41,964 nt of DNA, from IMG/VR virus record IMGVR_UViG_3300045988_036397, one strand, 5' to 3'. Made by a program: the position numbers and the translations under genes. Source of the stretch: a virus. Below, piece after piece: positions 23,808 to 35,154 of the stretch. The notes beneath the pieces are model-generated. The model made no database searches. It worked only from the letters and a program-made list of their open reading frames with translations, and was not told where the DNA came from. The number at the start of each line of letters is the position of its first letter. The stretch's first letter is position 1.

Positions 23808-25154
23808 TCACTCCTCGCCGTTGGTCGTGCGGTCTAACTCCTCTGCCGCCTTTCGATTCATCAATTCATCGTACTGGTCTGCGTCGCCAAGGATGGTCAG
23901 CAGCTTTTTGGTGATGTATTCATCATCGTAGTATTCTGCACCCAGCAAGACCGTCTGCGCCTCTTCCTGCTTGTTGATGATTTGGTTGCGCGTGTATGTC
24001 GGATCGTCATCAAGCCCGGCAACCGCCAAAATGCCCTTGATGCAGCGCGTCACGCAGCTTTCAAACTTGTCTGTTTTCAGGTCGAGTGGCACATAACTGG
24101 CCTTGATGGCCGTTGCAGTTTGGTTGCCAGCGCTGACAGCGGCAGAATCAAAGGCCTGAAAGTCCTCGTATAGCTTTTTGGTGAGCATATCAATAGTCGC
24201 CTGCGTGCCTTGGAACGGAGCTTCGATGCTCTGTGGCGTGGCCTTTGCGCCCTCGTCACCGTCAGCATGGGCGACATGGGTCGTCTTAAGACGCTCAATG
24301 AACTTTGTGTCGTCCTGCTCGTCCATGCCTCCGCAGTTGGTCAGAACCCAGAAAATCAGGTTGCCTTCGTCAACGTTGTTTACCATGTTGGAGCTTGCAA
24401 GGTCGAGCGCGTCAATGGTATTCTGTCGCCCCTGTAGCTCGCTGTGGGCCTGCTCGCCGTTTTTCAGCGGGATAATGGGAAATCCGGGATAATTCTCGCC
24501 GTCATAAATTTCTGTTCCGTCTGCCTCGCTGGTGCGCAGCTTCAACTTGTAGGCGCGTTTCGGCTTGAGAATCGCCATATCATCGCTTTTGGGCTTTAGA
24601 TACTCTGTGTAACCGTCAAGCTCGTACAGCGTGGAGCGCAGCGGCTTATTGTCTGCCACCTGCCAGAAACGGATTCCGGCTTTAATGGATCCGTCTTCCT
24701 CGTCGTATAGGGGAACAAATTCCTCTGATGCGAACACCTGCACATGGTCGAGATTCCAAAACACGAAAGACTGCCCGTCAATCAAAGCATGGCGGGCAGC
24801 GTCCATAATATCTTCGTCAAACGTAGCACCCAGCGCCTTTTTTGTCTCCGGCTCCTGAAATGAAACGCCGTTGCCTAACAAATACGAAACTTCTTGGTCT
24901 ACGACAAAGCCAAAGAACTTGCTTGCTATCTTGTGATTTGCCGTGTACATGTCACGGTGCGCCTTGCCCTGCATGTCGTAAATGATTTTCTCGTATTTGT
25001 TGATTGTAGGGTTTTCTCCGTGGTAATACTTGTTGGCGTTCGCTGCAAGGCGTGTGCTATGGTCGGCCTTATACTCATTGATTGCGCCAAGTATGAAACT
25101 CATGCGGGCTTTTTCGTCCTCGCCAACCGCTACAAAATCTTGGTATGTTTTCAC
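23808..25154 (-). CDS. portal protein (SPP1 gp6-like)
   Basis: 448-aa ORF (GTG start) immediately downstream of terL. Confidence 0.85.
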   Translation of the reverse strand: MKTYQDFVAVGEDEKARMSFILGAINEYKADHSTRLAANANKYYHGENPTINKYEKIIYDMQGKAHRDMYTANHKIASKFFGFVVDQEVSYLLGNGVSFQEPETKKALGATFDEDIMDAARHALIDGQSFVFWNLDHVQVFASEEFVPLYDEEDGSIKAGIRFWQVADNKPLRSTLYELDGYTEYLKPKSDDMAILKPKRAYKLKLRTSEADGTEIYDGENYPGFPIIPLKNGEQAHSELQGRQNTIDALDLASSNMVNNVDEGNLIFWVLTNCGGMDEQDDTKFIERLKTTHVAHADGDEGAKATPQSIEAPFQGTQATIDMLTKKLYEDFQAFDSAAVSAGNQTATAIKASYVPLDLKTDKFESCVTRCIKGILAVAGLDDDPTYTRNQIINKQEEAQTVLLGAEYYDDEYITKKLLTILGDADQYDELMNRKAAEELDRTTNGEE

Positions 25155-25169
25155 GTCTTCTCACCGCCT

Positions 25170-26441
25170 TTACACGAAAATGCTCTTGTATCTGGTTTCG
25201 GCGGTGTCCCCCGCCTTGTTTGCCGTGCTTTCCATCGCATAACGCACAGCGTCAATGTGATGGTTGTTCAAATCTGGGTAGCCTTCCAGCACTTCACCAG
25301 TCTTGCTGTCTCGCTCGTACTCGTACTCACTGAATTCCTTTGCTGTGTCCGGGCATCGTTCCGGGTCAATGACAATAGCTTCCAGCATTTGCAGCCACTT
25401 TGTGCCGTAGCGAACCGATTTCGGCCCCTTGCGGGCTGGGAACGTCTTTACGCCGTACTTGTTATAGTCCGCAATAGATTTTGGCTCGGCGCTATCCGCG
25501 CAGACTTTATCCTCTCGCGTCAGCCCTCTATCTAAAAGCAGTTGCGCAGTGTCCCTGTTGCTGGTTCTACGCCGTGTCAGTTCATCGAAGATGTACAGCG
25601 TGCGCCGCGCTGCGTCATAGTGCATTGCATTGTATGCCCATGGGTCAGGATACCAGCCCCAGTCAACGCCGCGCTTGATACGGTCAAAACCTGCAATCTG
25701 TTCATCGGTGATTTTCTCAATGCGCAGATTCTCAAATACCGCTGTGCCGTTGCCGACAACCTCGCCCAGATACTCGTGTCGGTAGGCCGTTTCGTTTGTG
25801 CGCTGCAAATATTCAGCATCGGCCAGAAACCGCTCTCCGAGCCATTCTGCTGGCGTTGTTTTGTAGGTGGAATGATGTACTAGCTTTCCCTTGCGGGGCT
25901 GCAAAGCGTAGCCGTTCGCCCAGTTCCGCGCCATTGCAGGCGGGTTGAAGCTCTTGAACGTGATGAACCAGTCACCGCCGCGCAAGCAGGACTGCTCCAC
26001 GTTTCGGATTTGCTCTTCACCGTCAAACTGGTCAAGTTCTTCAAACCAGCAGATGCCGATATAACCAAAAGGCACTTTAATTGACTTTACCTTGCCGGGG
26101 TCATCAACGCCGAAAAAAAGCACCTTTTGTCCTGTCGGCAAATAGGTGCATTCCATCGGGGAGACTGTGCAACGAAAATGGTCGTGCAATCCAAGCTCAT
26201 TGATTGCCCATACGATTTGCGCATACACGCTTGTGCGCAGTGTGTTTCCGACCTTGCGGAAAACCGCCGCGTGGCATTGCGGATGCTTTAGCAGCTGCAA
26301 AATTAGCTCTATGCTAATATAGCTGGATTTTGTACTGCCGCGCCCGCCCTTTGCGACAAGCTCTTTTACATTACCTGCCTTGATTTCACGGTGGATTTTT
26401 GCGAAGCAAGGGGAAACAACGCCAGATAGCTTACAAGTCAT
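25170..26441 (-). CDS. terL: terminase large subunit (PBSX-type)
   Basis: 423 aa with Walker A KGGRGSTKS. Its start overlaps the terS stop. Confidence 0.9.
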   Translation of the reverse strand: MTCKLSGVVSPCFAKIHREIKAGNVKELVAKGGRGSTKSSYISIELILQLLKHPQCHAAVFRKVGNTLRTSVYAQIVWAINELGLHDHFRCTVSPMECTYLPTGQKVLFFGVDDPGKVKSIKVPFGYIGICWFEELDQFDGEEQIRNVEQSCLRGGDWFITFKSFNPPAMARNWANGYALQPRKGKLVHHSTYKTTPAEWLGERFLADAEYLQRTNETAYRHEYLGEVVGNGTAVFENLRIEKITDEQIAGFDRIKRGVDWGWYPDPWAYNAMHYDAARRTLYIFDELTRRRTSNRDTAQLLLDRGLTREDKVCADSAEPKSIADYNKYGVKTFPARKGPKSVRYGTKWLQMLEAIVIDPERCPDTAKEFSEYEYERDSKTGEVLEGYPDLNNHHIDAVRYAMESTANKAGDTAETRYKSIFV

Positions 26442-26856
26442 CTATGATTAGCACCTCGCTATCCTGCTGTTGTTCCGGCTTATCCTGCCATCCGAAATTT
26501 GCCCGCAAGCTGAACTGTGCGCCGCCGGAGCCGTCTTTGTCATACAGTCTTTCTTCGGCGTACTGTTCACAACGGGTCTTTGCACGCGTAATCGTGTCAT
26601 TGAACTCTGGTTTATTTTGATAATTCAAAAGCGCCTGCCTTGATGCAAAACCAAGTGCAAGCGCCAACCCTGTCACAGTAGGCGGCTTTTTATCGTCATA
26701 GATGATATAGCCGTTTTTATTTCTCATCGGTTCGCCGTTATCGTCTACGAACGGCTGTCCTTTGCAGGCTTCAAAGTAGGCATCAATCTTTTCTTGCATT
26801 GCCTTTACGCTTCTGTATTTAGGTGGTGCGCCCACCGGATTTTTTCTTGATGCCAC
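26431..26856 (-). CDS. terS: terminase small subunit
   Basis: The track ORF 26431-27027 is trimmed to GTG 26856, preceded by GAGGTG. The product begins (M)ASRKNPVGAPPKYRSVKAMQEKIDAYFEAC, a typical small-terminase N-terminus. The upstream extension is not protein-like. Confidence 0.75.
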   Translation of the reverse strand: MASRKNPVGAPPKYRSVKAMQEKIDAYFEACKGQPFVDDNGEPMRNKNGYIIYDDKKPPTVTGLALALGFASRQALLNYQNKPEFNDTITRAKTRCEQYAEERLYDKDGSGGAQFSLRANFGWQDKPEQQQDSEVLIIDDL

Positions 26857-26876
26857 TTTATCACCTCGCCTTACAA

Positions 26877-26906
26877 CACAAAAAGCCCACACAATTTGTG
26901 TAGGCT
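26877..26906 (-). terminator. intrinsic terminator about 20 nt upstream of the terS start
   Basis: The minus-strand RNA reads AGCCUACACA-AAU-UGUGUGGGCU followed by UUUUU. One stem position is a G-U pair on the minus strand but a C-A mismatch on the plus strand, which argues for minus-strand function. Confidence 0.7.
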
Positions 26907-27301
26907 TATATCCTCCAAAACCCCTTTGCGCCGGAGGAGAAGCGCGTTCCCACCCTACCGGTTTATGCTGTGCCGGTCTCACCCGTTGCGGGGAGCAAAT
27001 CCGCAACGCTTTTTTCATCCGCTGCATTTATCCCCGCGTGCGGATTCGCGGTCTCTGCTTTGATGTTATGGGTTTCGGCGATGCGTAACTGCGTCAGTAA
27101 CGGAGTCCACACAAGCAGATGCCGAACGGTTTTCTAGATGTCACCGTCAAAACGTTCCCGAACTTCTCCGCTTTCAAAATCGGTGTGCAATCGGGTATGC
27201 GCCCTCTCGTAGTGGGCTGTGCACCGTCGCTCTTCCGGTGTGTCAGGTTATCTATCGCGTTTCCTGCGCCGGGCTTTCACCGGTGGGAGCGACCCAGCAT
27301 G

Positions 27302-27359
27302 TGCCCTCAGCCGGACTTGAACCGGCACACCAAGGCTCTTGCCATTGAGCTACAAGGGC
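27302..27359 (-). ncRNA. tRNA-like element lacking an anticodon arm
   Basis: The minus strand reads GCCCTTG-TA-GCTC-AATGGCAA-GAGC-CTTGGTGT-GCCGG-TTCAAGT-CCGGC-TGAGGGC-A. It has a 7-bp acceptor stem (two G-U pairs), U8 A9, a D-arm containing GG and a canonical T-arm. Only 8 nt occupy the place of the anticodon arm and variable loop. No CCA is encoded. Confidence 0.55.
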
Positions 27360-27665
27360 ATGTGCGGCTTGCCGTTTGCACGACCATTGTCATCATTTGT
27401 GAGGGATACCGCGCCCGCTCACACAGACAGGTTGCGACCCTGCCCTCTGGTACTGCACATAGGTCTTGCACCTTTGCCGCGCCGTTGCTTCGGAACGCAG
27501 CGCCCTTATTCTTTGTGGATAGAATCGGCTATGCAGCATATAAAATGCCGGTCTTTCCCGGCTGCCAGCTATGAATAGGAGAATTGAAATGGTAAAGAAA
27601 AGAGATTTTAGCTATGCCGTAGGCTGTCCCGTTCCTACATCATCCAGCATATCTATAATAGCAGG

Positions 27666-28097
27666 TTAAAAGTGAACTGGAGTGCACAGATTTTCAATTG
27701 CAGCGCGGTGTAATTTCTTTGCCCATCGCTCGGAAATATTTAGATTTATCGCAATTTTCCACCAATACGGGGTGCCGACAATATACCGCTCCCGCAGAAC
27801 GTCCCGCTGCATTTGGTCTTGAACAGAGTTTATTGCGGTTTCGATTTCTTCCCTTTGCATTTCGGTTTCAACAATCTGCTTGTATAGAGCTTCCTGACGC
27901 TCCATGATTCTGCAAACGGCATCCTCGATTTTGTTTTTCCCGCCAGCAGACACCACCACGGGGGATAATGCTTTAGTGGTCGCTGTTGCCCGTTCACGTT
28001 CGCTTTGTATCTGCTGGCGCAGCTGTCGTTCATGATTCCTGCTGCGTTGGTATCTCCATAGCCACACTTTCTTTTGGTTGAATTCTTCTCTGGTCAT
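27666..28097 (-). CDS. ArpU/RinA-like late transcriptional activator (sigma region-4-like HTH)
   Basis: 143 aa with SD GAGGAG. The C-terminal segment DVLRERYIVGTPYWWKIAINLNISERWAKKLHRAAIENL fits a region-4-type HTH. It occupies the position upstream of the packaging genes. Confidence 0.65.
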   Translation of the reverse strand: MTREEFNQKKVWLWRYQRSRNHERQLRQQIQSERERATATTKALSPVVVSAGGKNKIEDAVCRIMERQEALYKQIVETEMQREEIETAINSVQDQMQRDVLRERYIVGTPYWWKIAINLNISERWAKKLHRAAIENLCTPVHF

Positions 28098-28218
28098 TGT
28101 ATCTCCTCTCTTCCAGTTTCATGCAGCGCGGCAGCGTGCAAATATCGCCATTCTTCCACTCGCATGTCGCGCAAAGATGTTCGCGGGCGTATTCATCAAC
28201 TAGTTGCTGTTTTGTCAT
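28030..28218 (-). CDS. small Cys-rich protein
   Basis: ORF trimmed to ATG 28218 with SD GGAGGTG. Product is MTKQQLVDEYAREHLCATCEWKNGDICTLPRC.... It overlaps the next gene by 68 nt. Confidence 0.5.
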   Translation of the reverse strand: MTKQQLVDEYAREHLCATCEWKNGDICTLPRCMKLEERRYNDQRRIQPKESVAMEIPTQQES

Positions 28219-28278
28219 GGGGTCACCTCCGGGGGGTGTAGATCGGCAGTTCTGTCCATGTTGTAACACCTGTTTAAT

Positions 28279-28728
28279 TCAAGCATAATGTTCTCCGTTG
28301 TATATAACCAGCATAGACGGAAAAGGCGCTGGTGGATACCTGTTTCCGTTATCGTCCTCAAAACGCAGTCTTCCGCGCAGAAAACGGATTTCAGCTTTTC
28401 CGTACACATAATCGTGGAAATATGACGTATCAGTTCTCGCGGGTATCAATAGGACTATTTTTGTTCCGCTCCGCGATTCTTCGTAGGCTTTGCGCACCCA
28501 TAGACCAATCATTCTGCCGTATGGAGGATTGCAAAACACACTTCCTGATTCAACGCTCCACGGCATTTTCAGACCATCTGTTTCCGGCGTGTAAAACCGA
28601 TTGCACTTTGCGCTTTTCTCGGTTGCCGCTGCATCCAGAACGAAATGAAATTCCTCGTTTAACTTGTCAAAAAAGTCCTACGGTGTGCAGTAATCCATTT
28701 TTTTGCTGCTTAAAAGTGCGTCGTTCAT
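28279..28728 (-). pseudogene. Dam-like DNA N6-adenine methyltransferase interrupted by one in-frame TAG (pseudogene or read-through)
   Basis: ATG 28728 (SD AAAGGAAG) opens MNDALLSSKKMDYCTP. A TAG follows at 28678-28680, and the same frame continues as DFFDKLNEEFHFVLDAAATEKSAKCNRFYTPE...VFCNPPYGR...LLIPARTDTSYFH. Together these give the full-length phage Dam pattern. Confidence 0.7.
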
Positions 28729-28755
28729 TTTGTGTTCTTCCTTTCAGCCGGTAGC

Positions 28756-28775
28756 CTGTCTTTAACGCTTATCCA
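28756..28775 (-). repeat. 20-bp direct repeat (copy 1), a duplicated DUF551 5' coding segment
   Basis: CTGTCTTTAACGCTTATCCA is identical to 29006-29025. Here it lies in a 19-aa remnant ORF (28725-28784, MCNWISVKDRLPAERKNTK). Confidence 0.85.
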
Positions 28776-28776
28776 A

Positions 28777-29034
28777 TTACACATAGTATCCTTCCTCTTC
28801 CGGCAATTTTGGCAATGACATCCAATGAGTGACATTTACTCCTGCAGTTTCGTAGGTGAGAGGTTCTCCGTCATTGTTTGTTCCATCATCGAAATAGCCA
28901 CCGCAATCACACCAACCACGTTCCGTGTCGTAAAATGCCAAATAAGTGTCCACACCAGCCCAATGGTCTAAACGCACAAGAACCTTTTCATACGGGTCAG
29001 GCAGTCTGTCTTTAACGCTTATCCATTCTCTCAT
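28777..29034 (-). CDS. DUF551-like protein
   Basis: 85 aa. The motifs WISVKDRLPD and VTHWMSLPKLP are typical of DUF551. Confidence 0.7.
   Translation of the reverse strand: MREWISVKDRLPDPYEKVLVRLDHWAGVDTYLAFYDTERGWCDCGGYFDDGTNNDGEPLTYETAGVNVTHWMSLPKLPEEEGYYV
29006..29025 (-). repeat. 20-bp direct repeat (copy 2)
   Basis: Identical to 28756-28775. It encodes WISVKDR at the start of the DUF551 gene. Confidence 0.85.
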
Positions 29035-29299
29035 TTGCGTTCACCATCCTTTTGCCGCACTCCGGGCAAAAATTATAAGCAGCGAAAGAAATTGCATTAC
29101 AGGCTGAACATACAACATTTGTGCTCCCGGCGCTATCGCTTATCCAATGCGCAGTAGGTCGCAGGGATTCTGGGTCTATGGTCGGCATAATGTCAATTTC
29201 GTAAATTACGACCGCGTCAAACTCGCCGCATTCCGGCGCGTTTGGAAAACACACCTTCACGGCGCGTTTCTTTAATTCATCTGCATCAATCAGTCGCAT
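29012..29299 (-). CDS. hypothetical protein with a C-terminal zinc ribbon
   Basis: 95 aa, with CSAC...CPEC near the C-terminus. Confidence 0.6.
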   Translation of the reverse strand: MRLIDADELKKRAVKVCFPNAPECGEFDAVVIYEIDIMPTIDPESLRPTAHWISDSAGSTNVVCSACNAISFAAYNFCPECGKRMVNANERMDKR

Positions 29300-29651
29300 G
29301 GCTATCTCTCACTTTCTCAAAATAGAATTTGATCGCTTTCGGATTTTCCAGCACATTGCCGTAAACGACGCCGACCTTGTAAATGTAGTTCTCTTGCAGT
29401 TTTCGCGGAATCTCTGCAATGTATCGTCTGAATGTTTCAAGGTCGTGTGCGCGTTTGTAATGGTTGCACATACGGCAGGACGGCATAAGGTTTTCAATGC
29501 CGTCCGTGCCGGAATCCTCTGGGTTCCACGCCCTCTGCGGCTTGAAGTGGTCTACCTGCATATTATTGTAGGCAATGTGGCGGCCACAGTAAGCGCAATG
29601 ACCGTCAAATTTCTTGTACACCGCAACGCGGGTCTTTTTACTGATTGCCAT
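29286..29651 (-). CDS. HNH endonuclease
   Basis: 121 aa with HCAYCG...VDHFKP...NLMPSCRMCNHYK, an HNH motif with zinc-binding cysteines. Confidence 0.85.
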   Translation of the reverse strand: MAISKKTRVAVYKKFDGHCAYCGRHIAYNNMQVDHFKPQRAWNPEDSGTDGIENLMPSCRMCNHYKRAHDLETFRRYIAEIPRKLQENYIYKVGVVYGNVLENPKAIKFYFEKVRDSHATD

Positions 29652-34500: not shown

Positions 34501-35154
34501 TCAGTTGTCCTTCTCTTGATGGCAGTGCATATAAATGTACTCGGAATGCGCTGTCATGTTCTGGTATAGCCAATCGTCGGCTTTTTCTTTACTCAAATGC
34601 TCGTGCATCACGCGCTTTTCATACACAAACTCGCCGTTAATTTTCTTTTCGGCTATGCGGTCTTTAATGTCCGCTTCTGTGTAGTTGGCTTCGACGAGAT
34701 AGAGATTATAGCCTTTGGCTGTTATTCCGTTCAGATTGTTTGCGTCGGTTGCATAGAACAATCTTTCAACGGGAGGCTGCGGCAGCTCTATATGCCAGCA
34801 GCAATTTTGTACATCATGCTTTGTTTCCTGCGCCTTAATTCTGCACAGATTCTTGTAGTTGTACCAGCGTTCTGTTCGTATCACGTCAATCTGGCTCATT
34901 TTAACGCCAGCATTCACGAGGGCTGCACATAACCACACACAGCACGCAAAACGCAATGTGGGCCGCTCTCTGGCGAGCCTGCGAAGCGTGGAGGGGTTGA
35001 AGTGGTCGCCGTGACTGTGCGTAAGAAGCACGAGCTTCAAATTCTTGTAATCATCTGTCAACCGAGAAAATGGAACGCCGCAATCAATCAATATTGTGTT
35101 TTGAATGAGAACGGCGTTCCCTTGGCTTCCGGTTGAAATTATCTTGCAGTCCAT
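34501..35154 (-). CDS. MBL-fold metallo-hydrolase
   Basis: 217 aa with the motif LLTHSHGDHF (HxHxDH). Confidence 0.8.
   Translation of the reverse strand: MDCKIISTGSQGNAVLIQNTILIDCGVPFSRLTDDYKNLKLVLLTHSHGDHFNPSTLRRLARERPTLRFACCVWLCAALVNAGVKMSQIDVIRTERWYNYKNLCRIKAQETKHDVQNCCWHIELPQPPVERLFYATDANNLNGITAKGYNLYLVEANYTEADIKDRIAEKKINGEFVYEKRVMHEHLSKEKADDWLYQNMTAHSEYIYMHCHQEKDN

Follow-up and report, generated by a model that had tools for sequence, protein, structure and literature searches.

A tRNA-like element without an anticodon arm in the terminase leader of a gut phage, and its possible role as an RNA-processing handle

Why would a phage keep, just ahead of its packaging genes, a transfer RNA (tRNA) that cannot decode? 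This question is raised by the IMG/VR virus record IMGVR_UViG_3300045988_036397, a stretch of 41,964 nucleotides (nt) that was analysed as a whole and is called here the window, in which 58 nt of the minus strand (27302-27359) have the shape of a tRNA that lacks its anticodon arm. According to Pfam and PHROG profile matches, the window is a temperate siphovirus-like genome with almost all its genes on the minus strand, and the relatives of its terL gene suggest, roughly, a temperate siphovirus of gut Clostridia. The element lies on the gene strand in a ~800-nt non-coding leader (26857-27665), which the list of open reading frames (ORFs) and the Pfam and PHROG matches delimit between the stop codon of a DUF1492 gene and the GTG start codon of terS (terminase small subunit). 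An earlier note, made from the letters alone, had proposed for the element a processing or handle module of a large RNA, a decoy or a decayed phage tRNA. Our preferred answer, which we hold tentatively and as somewhat short of probable, is that it is a tRNA-derived module kept as a handle for ribonuclease (RNase) P, RNase Z and the CCA-adding enzyme, through which the late leader RNA would be cut.

Read from 27359 to 27302, the element (ELEM) is GCCCUUG-UA-GCUC-AAUGGCAA-GAGC-CUUGGUGU-GCCGG-UUCAAGU-CCGGC-UGAGGGC-A, followed by CAU. From this minus-strand sequence we could assign the 5' strand of the acceptor stem (27353-27359), U8-A9 (27351-27352), a 4-bp D-arm with G18G19 (27335-27350), an 8-nt linker C-UU-GGUGU (27327-27334), a canonical T-arm (27310-27326), the 3' strand of the acceptor stem (27303-27309) and the discriminator A (27302). 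The acceptor stem has 7 bp including two G-U pairs, with G1-C72 at its end and C-G at pair 3:70, positions 15 and 48 are A and U, and CCA is not encoded, the stem being followed by A-CAU. All the structural details listed in the earlier note, from the 7-bp acceptor stem with its two G-U pairs, U8-A9 and the GG of the D-arm to the T-arm, the discriminator A, the 8 nt of the linker and the missing CCA, are in the sequence.

The Rfam tRNA model (RF00005) covers exactly 27302-27359 on the minus strand, from model position 1 to 71, with 40.9 bits against a gathering score of 29 (E = 2e-5 for the whole 42-kb window). In this alignment, 4 nt stand for 18 anticodon-arm model positions and 8 nt lie between the D and T stems; in tRNA numbering, positions 27-43 are replaced by 2 nt. 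The match runs end to end and confirms the loss of the anticodon arm, and ARAGORN called neither a tRNA nor a transfer-messenger RNA (tmRNA) in the whole window, as had been expected. Measured against a canonical tRNA, the element therefore has the acceptor stem, D-arm, T-arm and discriminator and lacks a 5-bp anticodon stem with a 7-nt loop. The cloverleaf-like fold was computed at -22.6 kcal/mol, 1.6 above the minimum free energy (MFE) structure at -24.2 kcal/mol. Folding energy by itself is weak evidence, with a z-score against shuffles of only -1.85, so that we base the argument for the element on comparative data and on the score of the covariance model instead.

The slot in sibling phages

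With terS as a query, we collected 80 loci from IMG/VR in which terS is 88-99% identical, mostly from human-gut samples, and the exact pattern of the element retrieved 71 further stretches. These 80 loci belong to closely related, recombining phages, so that counts are not independent, and the sample was partly ascertained by similarity to the element. ELEM was found in at least 71 IMG/VR viral contigs. Judging from these sequences, the same position in the siblings is a polymorphic tRNA slot, and the 58-nt element is its commonest allele (41 of the 80 loci). Ten loci carry an odd 86-nt tRNA-like without CCA, for which ARAGORN reports "His-atg" (for example L013, 2459-2544); two degenerate tRNA-likes that are related to each other, and in which a vestigial hairpin of 3 bp is left of the anticodon arm, were found in five and three loci; in two, a tetraloop on a 4-bp stem replaces the anticodon arm; and in one (L046, 2473-2541), the tRNA is non-canonical and 69 nt long, with CCA and an anticodon stem of 4 bp. 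True tRNAs were found as well, namely a 74-nt tRNA-Thr(UGU/CGU) in three loci and a tRNA-Trp or tRNA-Gly in six, all with an encoded CCA. Finally, three loci have the conserved block described below but no tRNA-like, and six have neither. Completely different slot contents occur among phages whose terS genes are 99% identical.

Some of the degenerate alleles keep their own pairing. In the L001 (2510-2590) and L028 types, GG is missing from the D-arm and the anticodon arm is reduced to a vestigial hairpin of 3 bp; the acceptor and T-stem differences between the two types are compensatory. In the L029-type allele (1090-1170), mismatches occur at 1:72 and within the T stem. In five loci (L018, L027, L048, L061 and L070), a 22-nt 5' remnant of another tRNA (AGCATTGCTCATCTGGTAGAAA or GCATAGCTCAGCTAGTAGAA) stands between the element and the block; such remnants show that tRNAs have repeatedly been gained, lost and recombined at the slot. 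The tRNA origin of the element, proposed in the earlier note, is supported at the sequence level by the CCA-encoding tRNA-Thr, tRNA-Trp and tRNA-Gly that siblings carry at the same position, with the same downstream sequence.

Three nucleotides after the element begins a conserved block, GCUGGGUCGCUCCCACCGGUGAAAGCCCGGCGCAGGAAACGCGAUAGAUAACCUGA (27243-27298, minus strand), whose columns are near-invariant in the sibling alignment. This 55-nt block, which opens with GCUGGGUCGCUCCCACCGGUGAAAGCCCGGCGCAGG and has no Rfam match, lies directly 3' of the slot tRNA or tRNA-like in the siblings, and in 5 of 32 sequences the CCGG/CCGG hairpin within it has covaried to CAGG/CCUG. A slot tRNA or tRNA-like stands upstream of the block in 71 of the 74 loci that have the block, and in none of the six that do not. 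The gap between slot and block is 0-5 nt in most alleles and 22-62 nt with tRNA remnants or Trp/Gly tRNAs, the wider gaps being filled by the 22-nt tRNA remnant or by a spacer of ~55-60 nt after tRNA-Trp/Gly. Downstream of the block, two unrelated versions of the leader exist. Moreover, in two loci from two different metagenomes (L007 and L009), both a D12-methyl RNA motif and a terminator that otherwise precede terS are deleted while the element is kept: here, the element and 36 nt of the block are left 62 nt before the terS start codon, with no terminator between. Given these deletions, we assign the element to the 5' leader of terS.

Then, we compared the copies of the element with one another and with their surroundings. 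About 110 copies fall into about a dozen variants, or 14 when later matches are included. Their flanks are much less uniform: two unrelated 5' flanks (...GCAAGCCGCACAU| and ...hairpin-UUUUAUAU|) were found, with a U at position -1 in every flank type, and at least seven different trailers of 3-5 nt separate the element from the block. Across 71 distinct 600-nt contexts, per-site diversity was 0.013-0.05 inside the element versus 0.10-0.40 outside. In the loci chosen through terS, diversity was 0.021 in the element (10 of 58 sites segregating) versus 0.103 at terS four-fold sites (17 of 39). In an anchor-based census of the slot, we saw no diverged ELEM-like copies beyond the reach of the similarity search.

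The changes that do occur mostly respect the fold. In the 14 variants, 99.1% of the pair cells are standard and 2 of 224 are unpaired. Two changes are compensatory, one in the D stem (C13-G22 to A-U, in L021) and one in the T stem (C-G to U-A, in L261), several stem changes exchange G-U with G-C or A-U so that pairing is kept, and two variants break one pair each (C4A and G22A). Pairing in the acceptor, D and T stems, whose loss among homologues would have spoken against the proposed structure, is thus maintained. A neutral pseudogene would change at the neutral rate and without regard to pairing, and the element does neither, in a set of sequences that are related and partly ascertained by similarity. 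Together, these comparisons indicate that the element is under purifying selection. The earlier note had also considered that related phages might have a full-length tRNA at this position and this copy a unique deletion. Full-length tRNAs do occur there in relatives, but the armless form is the commonest allele, present in dozens of contigs, and cannot be called unique. Since it is also near-invariant in 71 flank contexts, keeps its pairing and has no full-length parent, the label "simple pseudogene" finds no support.

No full-length tRNA combining the D-arm and T-loop of the element was found in IMG/VR. Only two tRNAs share its D-arm, and these are unrelated Ile and Val tRNAs in tRNA arrays of jumbo phages, while the identity to the tRNAs that co-occur in the slot is generic (12-20 of 25 nt per arm region). 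Outside the sampled phages, the 801-nt leader had no blastn match in GenBank phages, the exact element pattern (D-arm, 7-10-nt linker, T-arm) had none in 185,579 GTDB species genomes, and a looser ELEM-specific pattern retrieved nothing from a first scan of JGI metagenome contigs; one ELEM variant with a UUCGAGU T-loop was found in an ENA metagenome contig (L449). Scanning GTDB with terL, we found 80 prophage relatives at 64-75% identity in Gemmiger, Subdoligranulum, Faecalibacterium and other Oscillospiraceae. Because these prophages have no homology to the leader and mostly no tRNA or tRNA-like upstream of the terminase, the slot appears to be confined to a narrower group of phages.

Anticodon-arm-less tRNA-likes in other phages

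By searching IMG/VR with a general pattern (D-arm, 6-16 nt, T-arm), we obtained at least 116 matches. Among the matches listed, at least 49 of 116 form six or more of the 7 acceptor pairs together with all 5 T-stem pairs, where fewer than 0.1 were expected; again among the matches listed, the family members are mostly solitary, and a few stand within tRNA arrays. A second pattern fixed only the junction and the T-loop (AGCCUUGG-N6-GGUUCGANUCC) and left the D-arm and the acceptor unconstrained. It gave 29 viral matches; in 19 of them a D-arm immediately precedes the junction, and 15 of these 19 have at least 6 of 7 acceptor pairs (chance 0.013 each). In a metagenome collection, the same pattern gave at least 120 matches: at least 25 are anticodon-less, at least 18 of these with at least 6 of 7 acceptor pairs, and, among the matches listed, at least 93 lack an adjacent D-arm and appear mostly to be ordinary tRNAs.

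We aligned 35 members, whose acceptor 5' strands differ in 34. Even so, 97.1% of the cells are paired and 13 of 18 pairs show double changes. None of 500 shuffles reached the observed percentage of paired cells, the number of double-change cells, the further pair types or the covariation score, and the count of pairs with double changes was reached in 22 of 500. The tertiary Levitt pair 15-48, which was never used to select the members, is G-C in 27, A-U in 6, G-U in 1 and other in 1 (Fisher p = 3e-5). A typical junction reads C26, 2 nt (UU, AU or AC), then G44 G45 N N Y48, with C...G in 25 of 34; from this junction, it appears that the 17-nt anticodon stem-loop has been replaced by a two-base cap while the variable-loop positions of the core triples were kept. 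By analogy, this CUUG-like cap may be compared with the CUUG tetraloop. The window element fits the family, with its C-UU-GGUGU junction, its A15/U48 and its acceptor, D and T pairs kept. An identical junction on fully diverged acceptor stems, whether it arose by common descent or by convergence, is on this comparative evidence not an expected product of neutral decay. Since the same shape recurs in many unrelated phages, selection appears to be keeping the element, which would then be more than a broken tRNA gene.

Clustering the neighbouring ORFs revealed no fixed protein partner for the family; a DNA-polymerase-I-like gene lies downstream in five loci and terL in four. Several high-GC members (L372, L188, L373, L351, L169 and L366) have complementary flanks, which lengthen the acceptor helix by 4-6 bp with the discriminator included in the pairing, so that the tRNA-like resembles a side branch of a longer stem. 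The family is therefore perhaps not functionally uniform. Full-text searches of one literature library returned no description of anticodon-arm-less tRNA-likes in phages, which is not proof of novelty.

Another anticodon-arm-less tRNA-like (GGUUCUU...AAGAACC-A) was observed in Lactococcus phages of the P335 group, 100% conserved and unannotated. It is present in TP712 (L349, AY766464.1 41947-42010), P335 and bIL309, 60-200 nt from the end of the record, and may be related to an attachment site.

Possible roles of the element

In the reading that we favour, the anticodon stem-loop would have been lost and selection would keep the "top half plus elbow", that is the acceptor stem, the T-arm, the D-arm and the core tertiary pairs, so that host tRNA-maturation enzymes would handle the element as a pre-tRNA. 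RNase P would cut at G1 (27359) and, since the element encodes no CCA, RNase Z would cut after the discriminator (27302); the CCA-adding enzyme may then extend the trimmed element. The product would be a stable RNA of ~58-61 nt, unable to decode, and cleavage would set both the 5' end of the downstream leader RNA (with the block at 27298, the D12-methyl motif and terS) and the 3' end of the upstream RNA. In the leader of the late (packaging) operon, the element would thus serve as punctuation or a handle. That the leader is transcribed, is cut by RNase P and RNase Z and may affect terS expression is what we infer from the features of the locus.

These features are a 12-bp acceptor/T stack (7+5 bp), G1-C72, U(-1), the G18G19/U54U55C56 elbow and the absence of CCA. 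The acceptor/T stack, G1-C72, the U at -1, the elbow and a missing CCA are what RNase P, RNase Z and the CCA-adding enzyme use, and in Firmicutes a tRNA without an encoded CCA is matured at its 3' end via RNase Z. What defines a tRNA-like processing signal, a non-decoding fold with acceptor/T stack and elbow, is therefore present in the terS leader, within a transcript that presumably spans it. Also, siblings with a true tRNA in this slot must transcribe and mature it, so the element that takes its place would be exposed to the same tRNA-processing enzymes.

Several observations weigh against this reading. No sigma-70-like promoter was found across 26700-27800, and a terminator-like hairpin stands ahead of the slot. 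The module is dispensable, as 3 of 74 block-bearing loci have no tRNA-like and 6 of 80 loci lack the whole module. RNase P and RNase Z require only the acceptor/T minihelix, so that the D-arm, the 15-48 pair and the near-complete invariance exceed the needs of a cleavage signal; part of this invariance could come from the recent spread of one allele. The acceptor-extending flanks of some family members are atypical of RNase P substrates. Finally, the MFE structure of the element is an alternative fold in which the linker pairs with the D region. We rejected this alternative because the C13A/G22U double change in L021 is compatible with the D stem alone and because U27A, in the linker, would disrupt the alternative pairing.

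The excess over what cleavage needs is also what speaks for a stand-alone small RNA, which we consider unlikely: the active product would be the released anticodon-less mimic, which could serve as decoy or sponge for some host factor that binds the acceptor or elbow of tRNAs. Candidate targets would be tRNA-targeting defence nucleases, nucleotidyl- or pyrophospho-transferase toxins, modification enzymes, or EF-Tu if the RNA is charged, and a decoy without an anticodon would stay out of decoding and be safe from anticodon nucleases. The invariance spans loops, linker and acceptor stem, most sampled loci have the element in the slot, a wide family keeps the full elbow and the core tertiary pairs together with a recurrent C-UU-G cap and a covarying 15-48 pair, and the family is mostly solitary with no fixed protein neighbour, as expected for a trans-acting RNA. 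Yet no partner was found, Pfam scans identified no tRNA-related enzyme encoded in the window, and in the slot the element can be exchanged for ordinary tRNAs and for quite different degenerate tRNA-likes. Moreover, a free-standing decoy would not need the tight linkage to the downstream block, and the element has neither G3-U70, which is an example of an anticodon-independent charging identity, nor any other identity of this kind. We would also doubt a neutral relic, in which a tRNA gene with a deleted anticodon arm has not yet decayed and one recent allele has spread by recombination in a young, related population. The slot is indeed a hot spot of tRNA gain and loss with its debris (5' fragments, L029-type mismatches, empty alleles), all copies come from related gut phages with 88-99% identical terS, neither GTDB genomes nor the JGI metagenome scan contained a copy, and two variants, C4A and G22A, break a pair. 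However, diversity in the element is five-fold below that of synonymous terS sites in the same genomes, the flanks just outside the 58 nt vary freely (two 5' types, at least seven trailers), and the stem changes mostly keep pairing, two of them by compensation. In IMG/VR, there is no full-length parent, the identity to co-occurring tRNAs being 68-80% in either arm region, and the same truncated architecture and junction occur with extensive covariation in unrelated phages.

That the tRNA-like remains uncut, as an attached 5' domain of a larger leader RNA running from the block to the D12-methyl motif and the terminator, seems improbable to us. Such a domain would be a folding scaffold, a protein-binding platform or a protector against 5' exonucleases, within a leader that regulates read-through into terS in cis. 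It would account for the constant position of the element beside the conserved block and for the conserved hairpins, D12-methyl motif and invariant terminator before terS; RNAalifold proposes long-range leader pairs, and in some family members the acceptor helix is extended by flanks, as in an embedded domain. Against it, the long-range pairs lack compensatory support, a true CCA-encoding tRNA that fills this slot has to be cut out, the part of the leader beyond the block is mosaic and can be missing with the element still in place, and no flank complementarity extends the acceptor stem of the window element. Of the "surrounding large RNA" mentioned in the earlier note, the ~800-nt non-coding leader with its conserved blocks and D12-methyl motif holds; that it folds as a single large RNA is conjecture. 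A role at the DNA level, either as the remnant of an attachment (att) site, that is a tRNA fragment duplicated by integration, or as a packaging (pac) site recognised by TerS, is very improbable. The element does adjoin terS, the Lactococcus P335-group tRNA-likes lie near the genome end, and temperate phages often integrate in tRNA genes and carry tRNA fragments (PMC9897764). But the integrase gene (852-2024) is ~25 kb away, both tRNA halves are present, which goes beyond a 3' fragment, and phages with 99% identical terS have completely different slot contents, contrary to what is expected of a pac site; G18G19, the UUCAAGU loop, the compensatory stems and the 15-48 covariation are meaningful only in RNA. 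An att-site fragment was accordingly rejected, the pattern of the element having no exact match in 185,579 species genomes either.

By analogy of the proposed function, the processing handle would be closest to plant t-elements, to mascRNA/MALAT1 and the TMERs, and to the non-tRNA RNase P substrates of phages. In mascRNA/MALAT1 and in the TMERs of murine gammaherpesvirus-68, tRNA-likes are co-transcribed and a cut by RNase P or RNase Z sets the end of the neighbouring RNA. These modules are CCA-added, not used in translation and keep a reduced anticodon arm, and they are eukaryotic or eukaryotic-viral; the element, in contrast, is in a phage, has no anticodon arm and has no sequence relationship to them. 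Non-tRNA substrates of RNase P in phages include the precursor of the P1/P7 C4 antisense RNA, which acts in immunity, and the stable RNAs C and D in the T4 tRNA cluster. Like them, the element is a phage non-coding RNA with tRNA-like acceptor/T features for which host maturation is proposed; unlike them, it has a different structure, with no sequence relationship, and their functions are not implied for it. In plant mitochondria, t-elements are tRNA-like structures by which RNase P and RNase Z are guided in forming mRNA ends (PMC1920247). The likeness is that of a non-decoding tRNA-like in a longer, presumed transcript, proposed as a cleavage signal. However, t-elements are organellar and their cleavage is mapped, whereas the element lies in a phage leader, retains the D-arm and core tertiary pairs, and its cleavage is predicted.

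Other known tRNA-like RNAs are less similar. With phage tRNA genes, the element shares the acceptor, D and T arms, the slot that tRNA-Thr, tRNA-Trp and tRNA-Gly also occupy and a score above the Rfam threshold, but it has no anticodon stem-loop, encodes no CCA, is negative in ARAGORN and cannot decode. In tmRNA, the tRNA-like domain likewise amounts to the "upper half" of a tRNA, lacks an anticodon and is a substrate of RNase P (PMC3985003, PMC3929946). tmRNA has G3-U70 for alanyl-tRNA synthetase (AlaRS), no D stem, pseudoknots, a tag ORF and a need for SmpB, whereas the element has C3-G70, a full D-arm, and D and T arms directly joined. A tmRNA identity was rejected on the C-G at 3:70, the lack of a tag and the absence of a tmRNA match in ARAGORN or Rfam. 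YrlA Y RNAs, which also occur in phages, mimic tRNAs with D- and T-arms and tertiary pairs, as the element does, and some are cleaved by RNase P and CCA-added (PMC4201824). They are circularly permuted (T-arm, closed acceptor-like stem-loop, D-arm), carry a Ro60-binding stem and lie beside a Ro60/Rsr gene (PMC4201824). This identity was rejected as well: the element has the normal tRNA order and an open acceptor stem, no Rfam Y-RNA match was obtained up to E = 5, and Pfam detected no TROVE/Ro60 domain among the 30 window ORFs scanned. Fragments of tRNA at att sites are non-canonical, phage-associated tRNA-likes that mislead annotation, and are terminal, usually 3', duplications (PMC9897764). 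The element differs from them by an internal loss of an arm with both ends intact, by its distance from the integrase and by the purifying selection that it appears to be under.

Mimicry of tRNA is a recurring viral strategy and, to our knowledge, its established cases in bacteriophages are limited to full tRNAs, tmRNA-like RNAs and Y RNAs. If the reading proposed here is right, phages would use the tRNA shape for purposes other than decoding. One plausible use is to let RNase P and RNase Z punctuate late transcripts, as a bacterial-virus analogue of t-elements and MALAT1/mascRNA; another is interference with host factors that recognise tRNA. It is conceivable, though we think it unlikely, that the family is a widespread and so far undescribed set of phage "half-tRNAs", stand-alone RNAs of ~60 nt that act on the tRNA-recognising machinery of the host and are neither cleavage signals nor relics; they could for example serve as decoys that draw off anti-phage nucleases or toxins directed at tRNA, or compete for RNase P, RNase Z or the CCA-adding enzyme. 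Because Rfam pipelines label such elements "tRNA" and tRNA finders skip them, they are mislabelled or invisible in phage genomes. A 58-nt RNA with a natural C-UU-G cap would also be a compact and naturally optimised substrate to learn which enzymes need only the elbow and the acceptor end.

The rest of the late leader and the neighbouring genes

Besides the element and the block, the leader holds terminator-like hairpins and the D12-methyl motif on the same strand, and it is mosaic among relatives (72-99% identity with block deletions in blastn). After the DUF1492 gene, the terminator scan found a hairpin GCCGGGAAAGACCGGC followed by AUUUUAUAUG (27547-27562, minus strand). In the window, this hairpin sits 180 nt upstream of the element and is followed by (A/C)UUUUAUAUG; in many siblings, a hairpin of another sequence with the same UUUUAUAUG motif abuts the first base of the slot tRNA or tRNA-like. 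The hairpin with UUUUAUAUG could be a terminator or a piece of a late promoter. A second, invariant intrinsic-terminator-like hairpin with a U tract lies just upstream of the ribosome-binding site (RBS) of terS (26883-26907, minus strand), as seen in the terminator scan and in the invariant columns of the sibling alignment.

The D12-methyl RNA motif (Rfam RF02950; 26945-27008, minus strand) scored 93.2 bits for a cut-off of 57, lies 294 nt downstream of the element and was present in all 20 sibling loci scanned. Here it precedes terS rather than a methyltransferase gene. In RNAalifold models, its conserved single-stranded 3' tail AGGGYGGGAACG has alternative upstream partners in the two leader types, and we found no compensatory support for them. 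A Dam-like DNA methyltransferase ORF was observed at 28279-28566 (minus strand) as a 95-aa fragment that matches positions 57-144 of 169 in Pfam Dam and 110-203 of 345 in PHROG 111; lying ~1.3 kb upstream of the D12-methyl motif, it probably represents either a remnant or a gene with a frameshift.

RNAalifold proposed long-range pairs of the block with the RBS region of terS and of an upstream segment with the D12-methyl tail. This long-range structure was rejected, as its pairs are invariant or changed on one side only and none is compensatory. At E <= 5, Rfam matches over 25500-29500 were limited to tRNA and D12-methyl, and GOLLD, ROOL, Y RNA, ribozyme and riboswitch identities were rejected on these grounds. 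On the opposite strand, a 151-aa ORF with an ATG start overlaps the element (27119-27574, plus strand). It has no Pfam family match, and in close relatives the stop-free stretch ranges from 0 to more than 160 codons. Since this ORF is not conserved among relatives, we consider the stretch of the element non-coding and rejected the ORF as spurious, though automatic gene callers might annotate it.

Downstream of the leader, terS (26431-26856; Pfam GP3_package, phrog_606) is followed by terL (25170-26441; Pfam Terminase_3) and by the portal gene (23808-25154; Pfam SPP1_portal), all on the minus strand. Upstream, the DUF1492 gene (27666-28097, minus strand) matches Pfam PF07374 (2.7e-8) and the PHROG "transcriptional regulator/activator" families phrog_36 (1.2e-19) and phrog_248 (8e-14); it is late-regulator-like and occupies the position of a late-gene regulator. 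The window further encodes, besides the integrase, RecT, SSB, RusA and HNH proteins. Next to RecT and SSB, a gene at 34501-35154 (minus strand) encodes a protein of the metallo-beta-lactamase fold (Lactamase_B_2), a superfamily that includes RNase Z; this protein is most likely a recombination nuclease.

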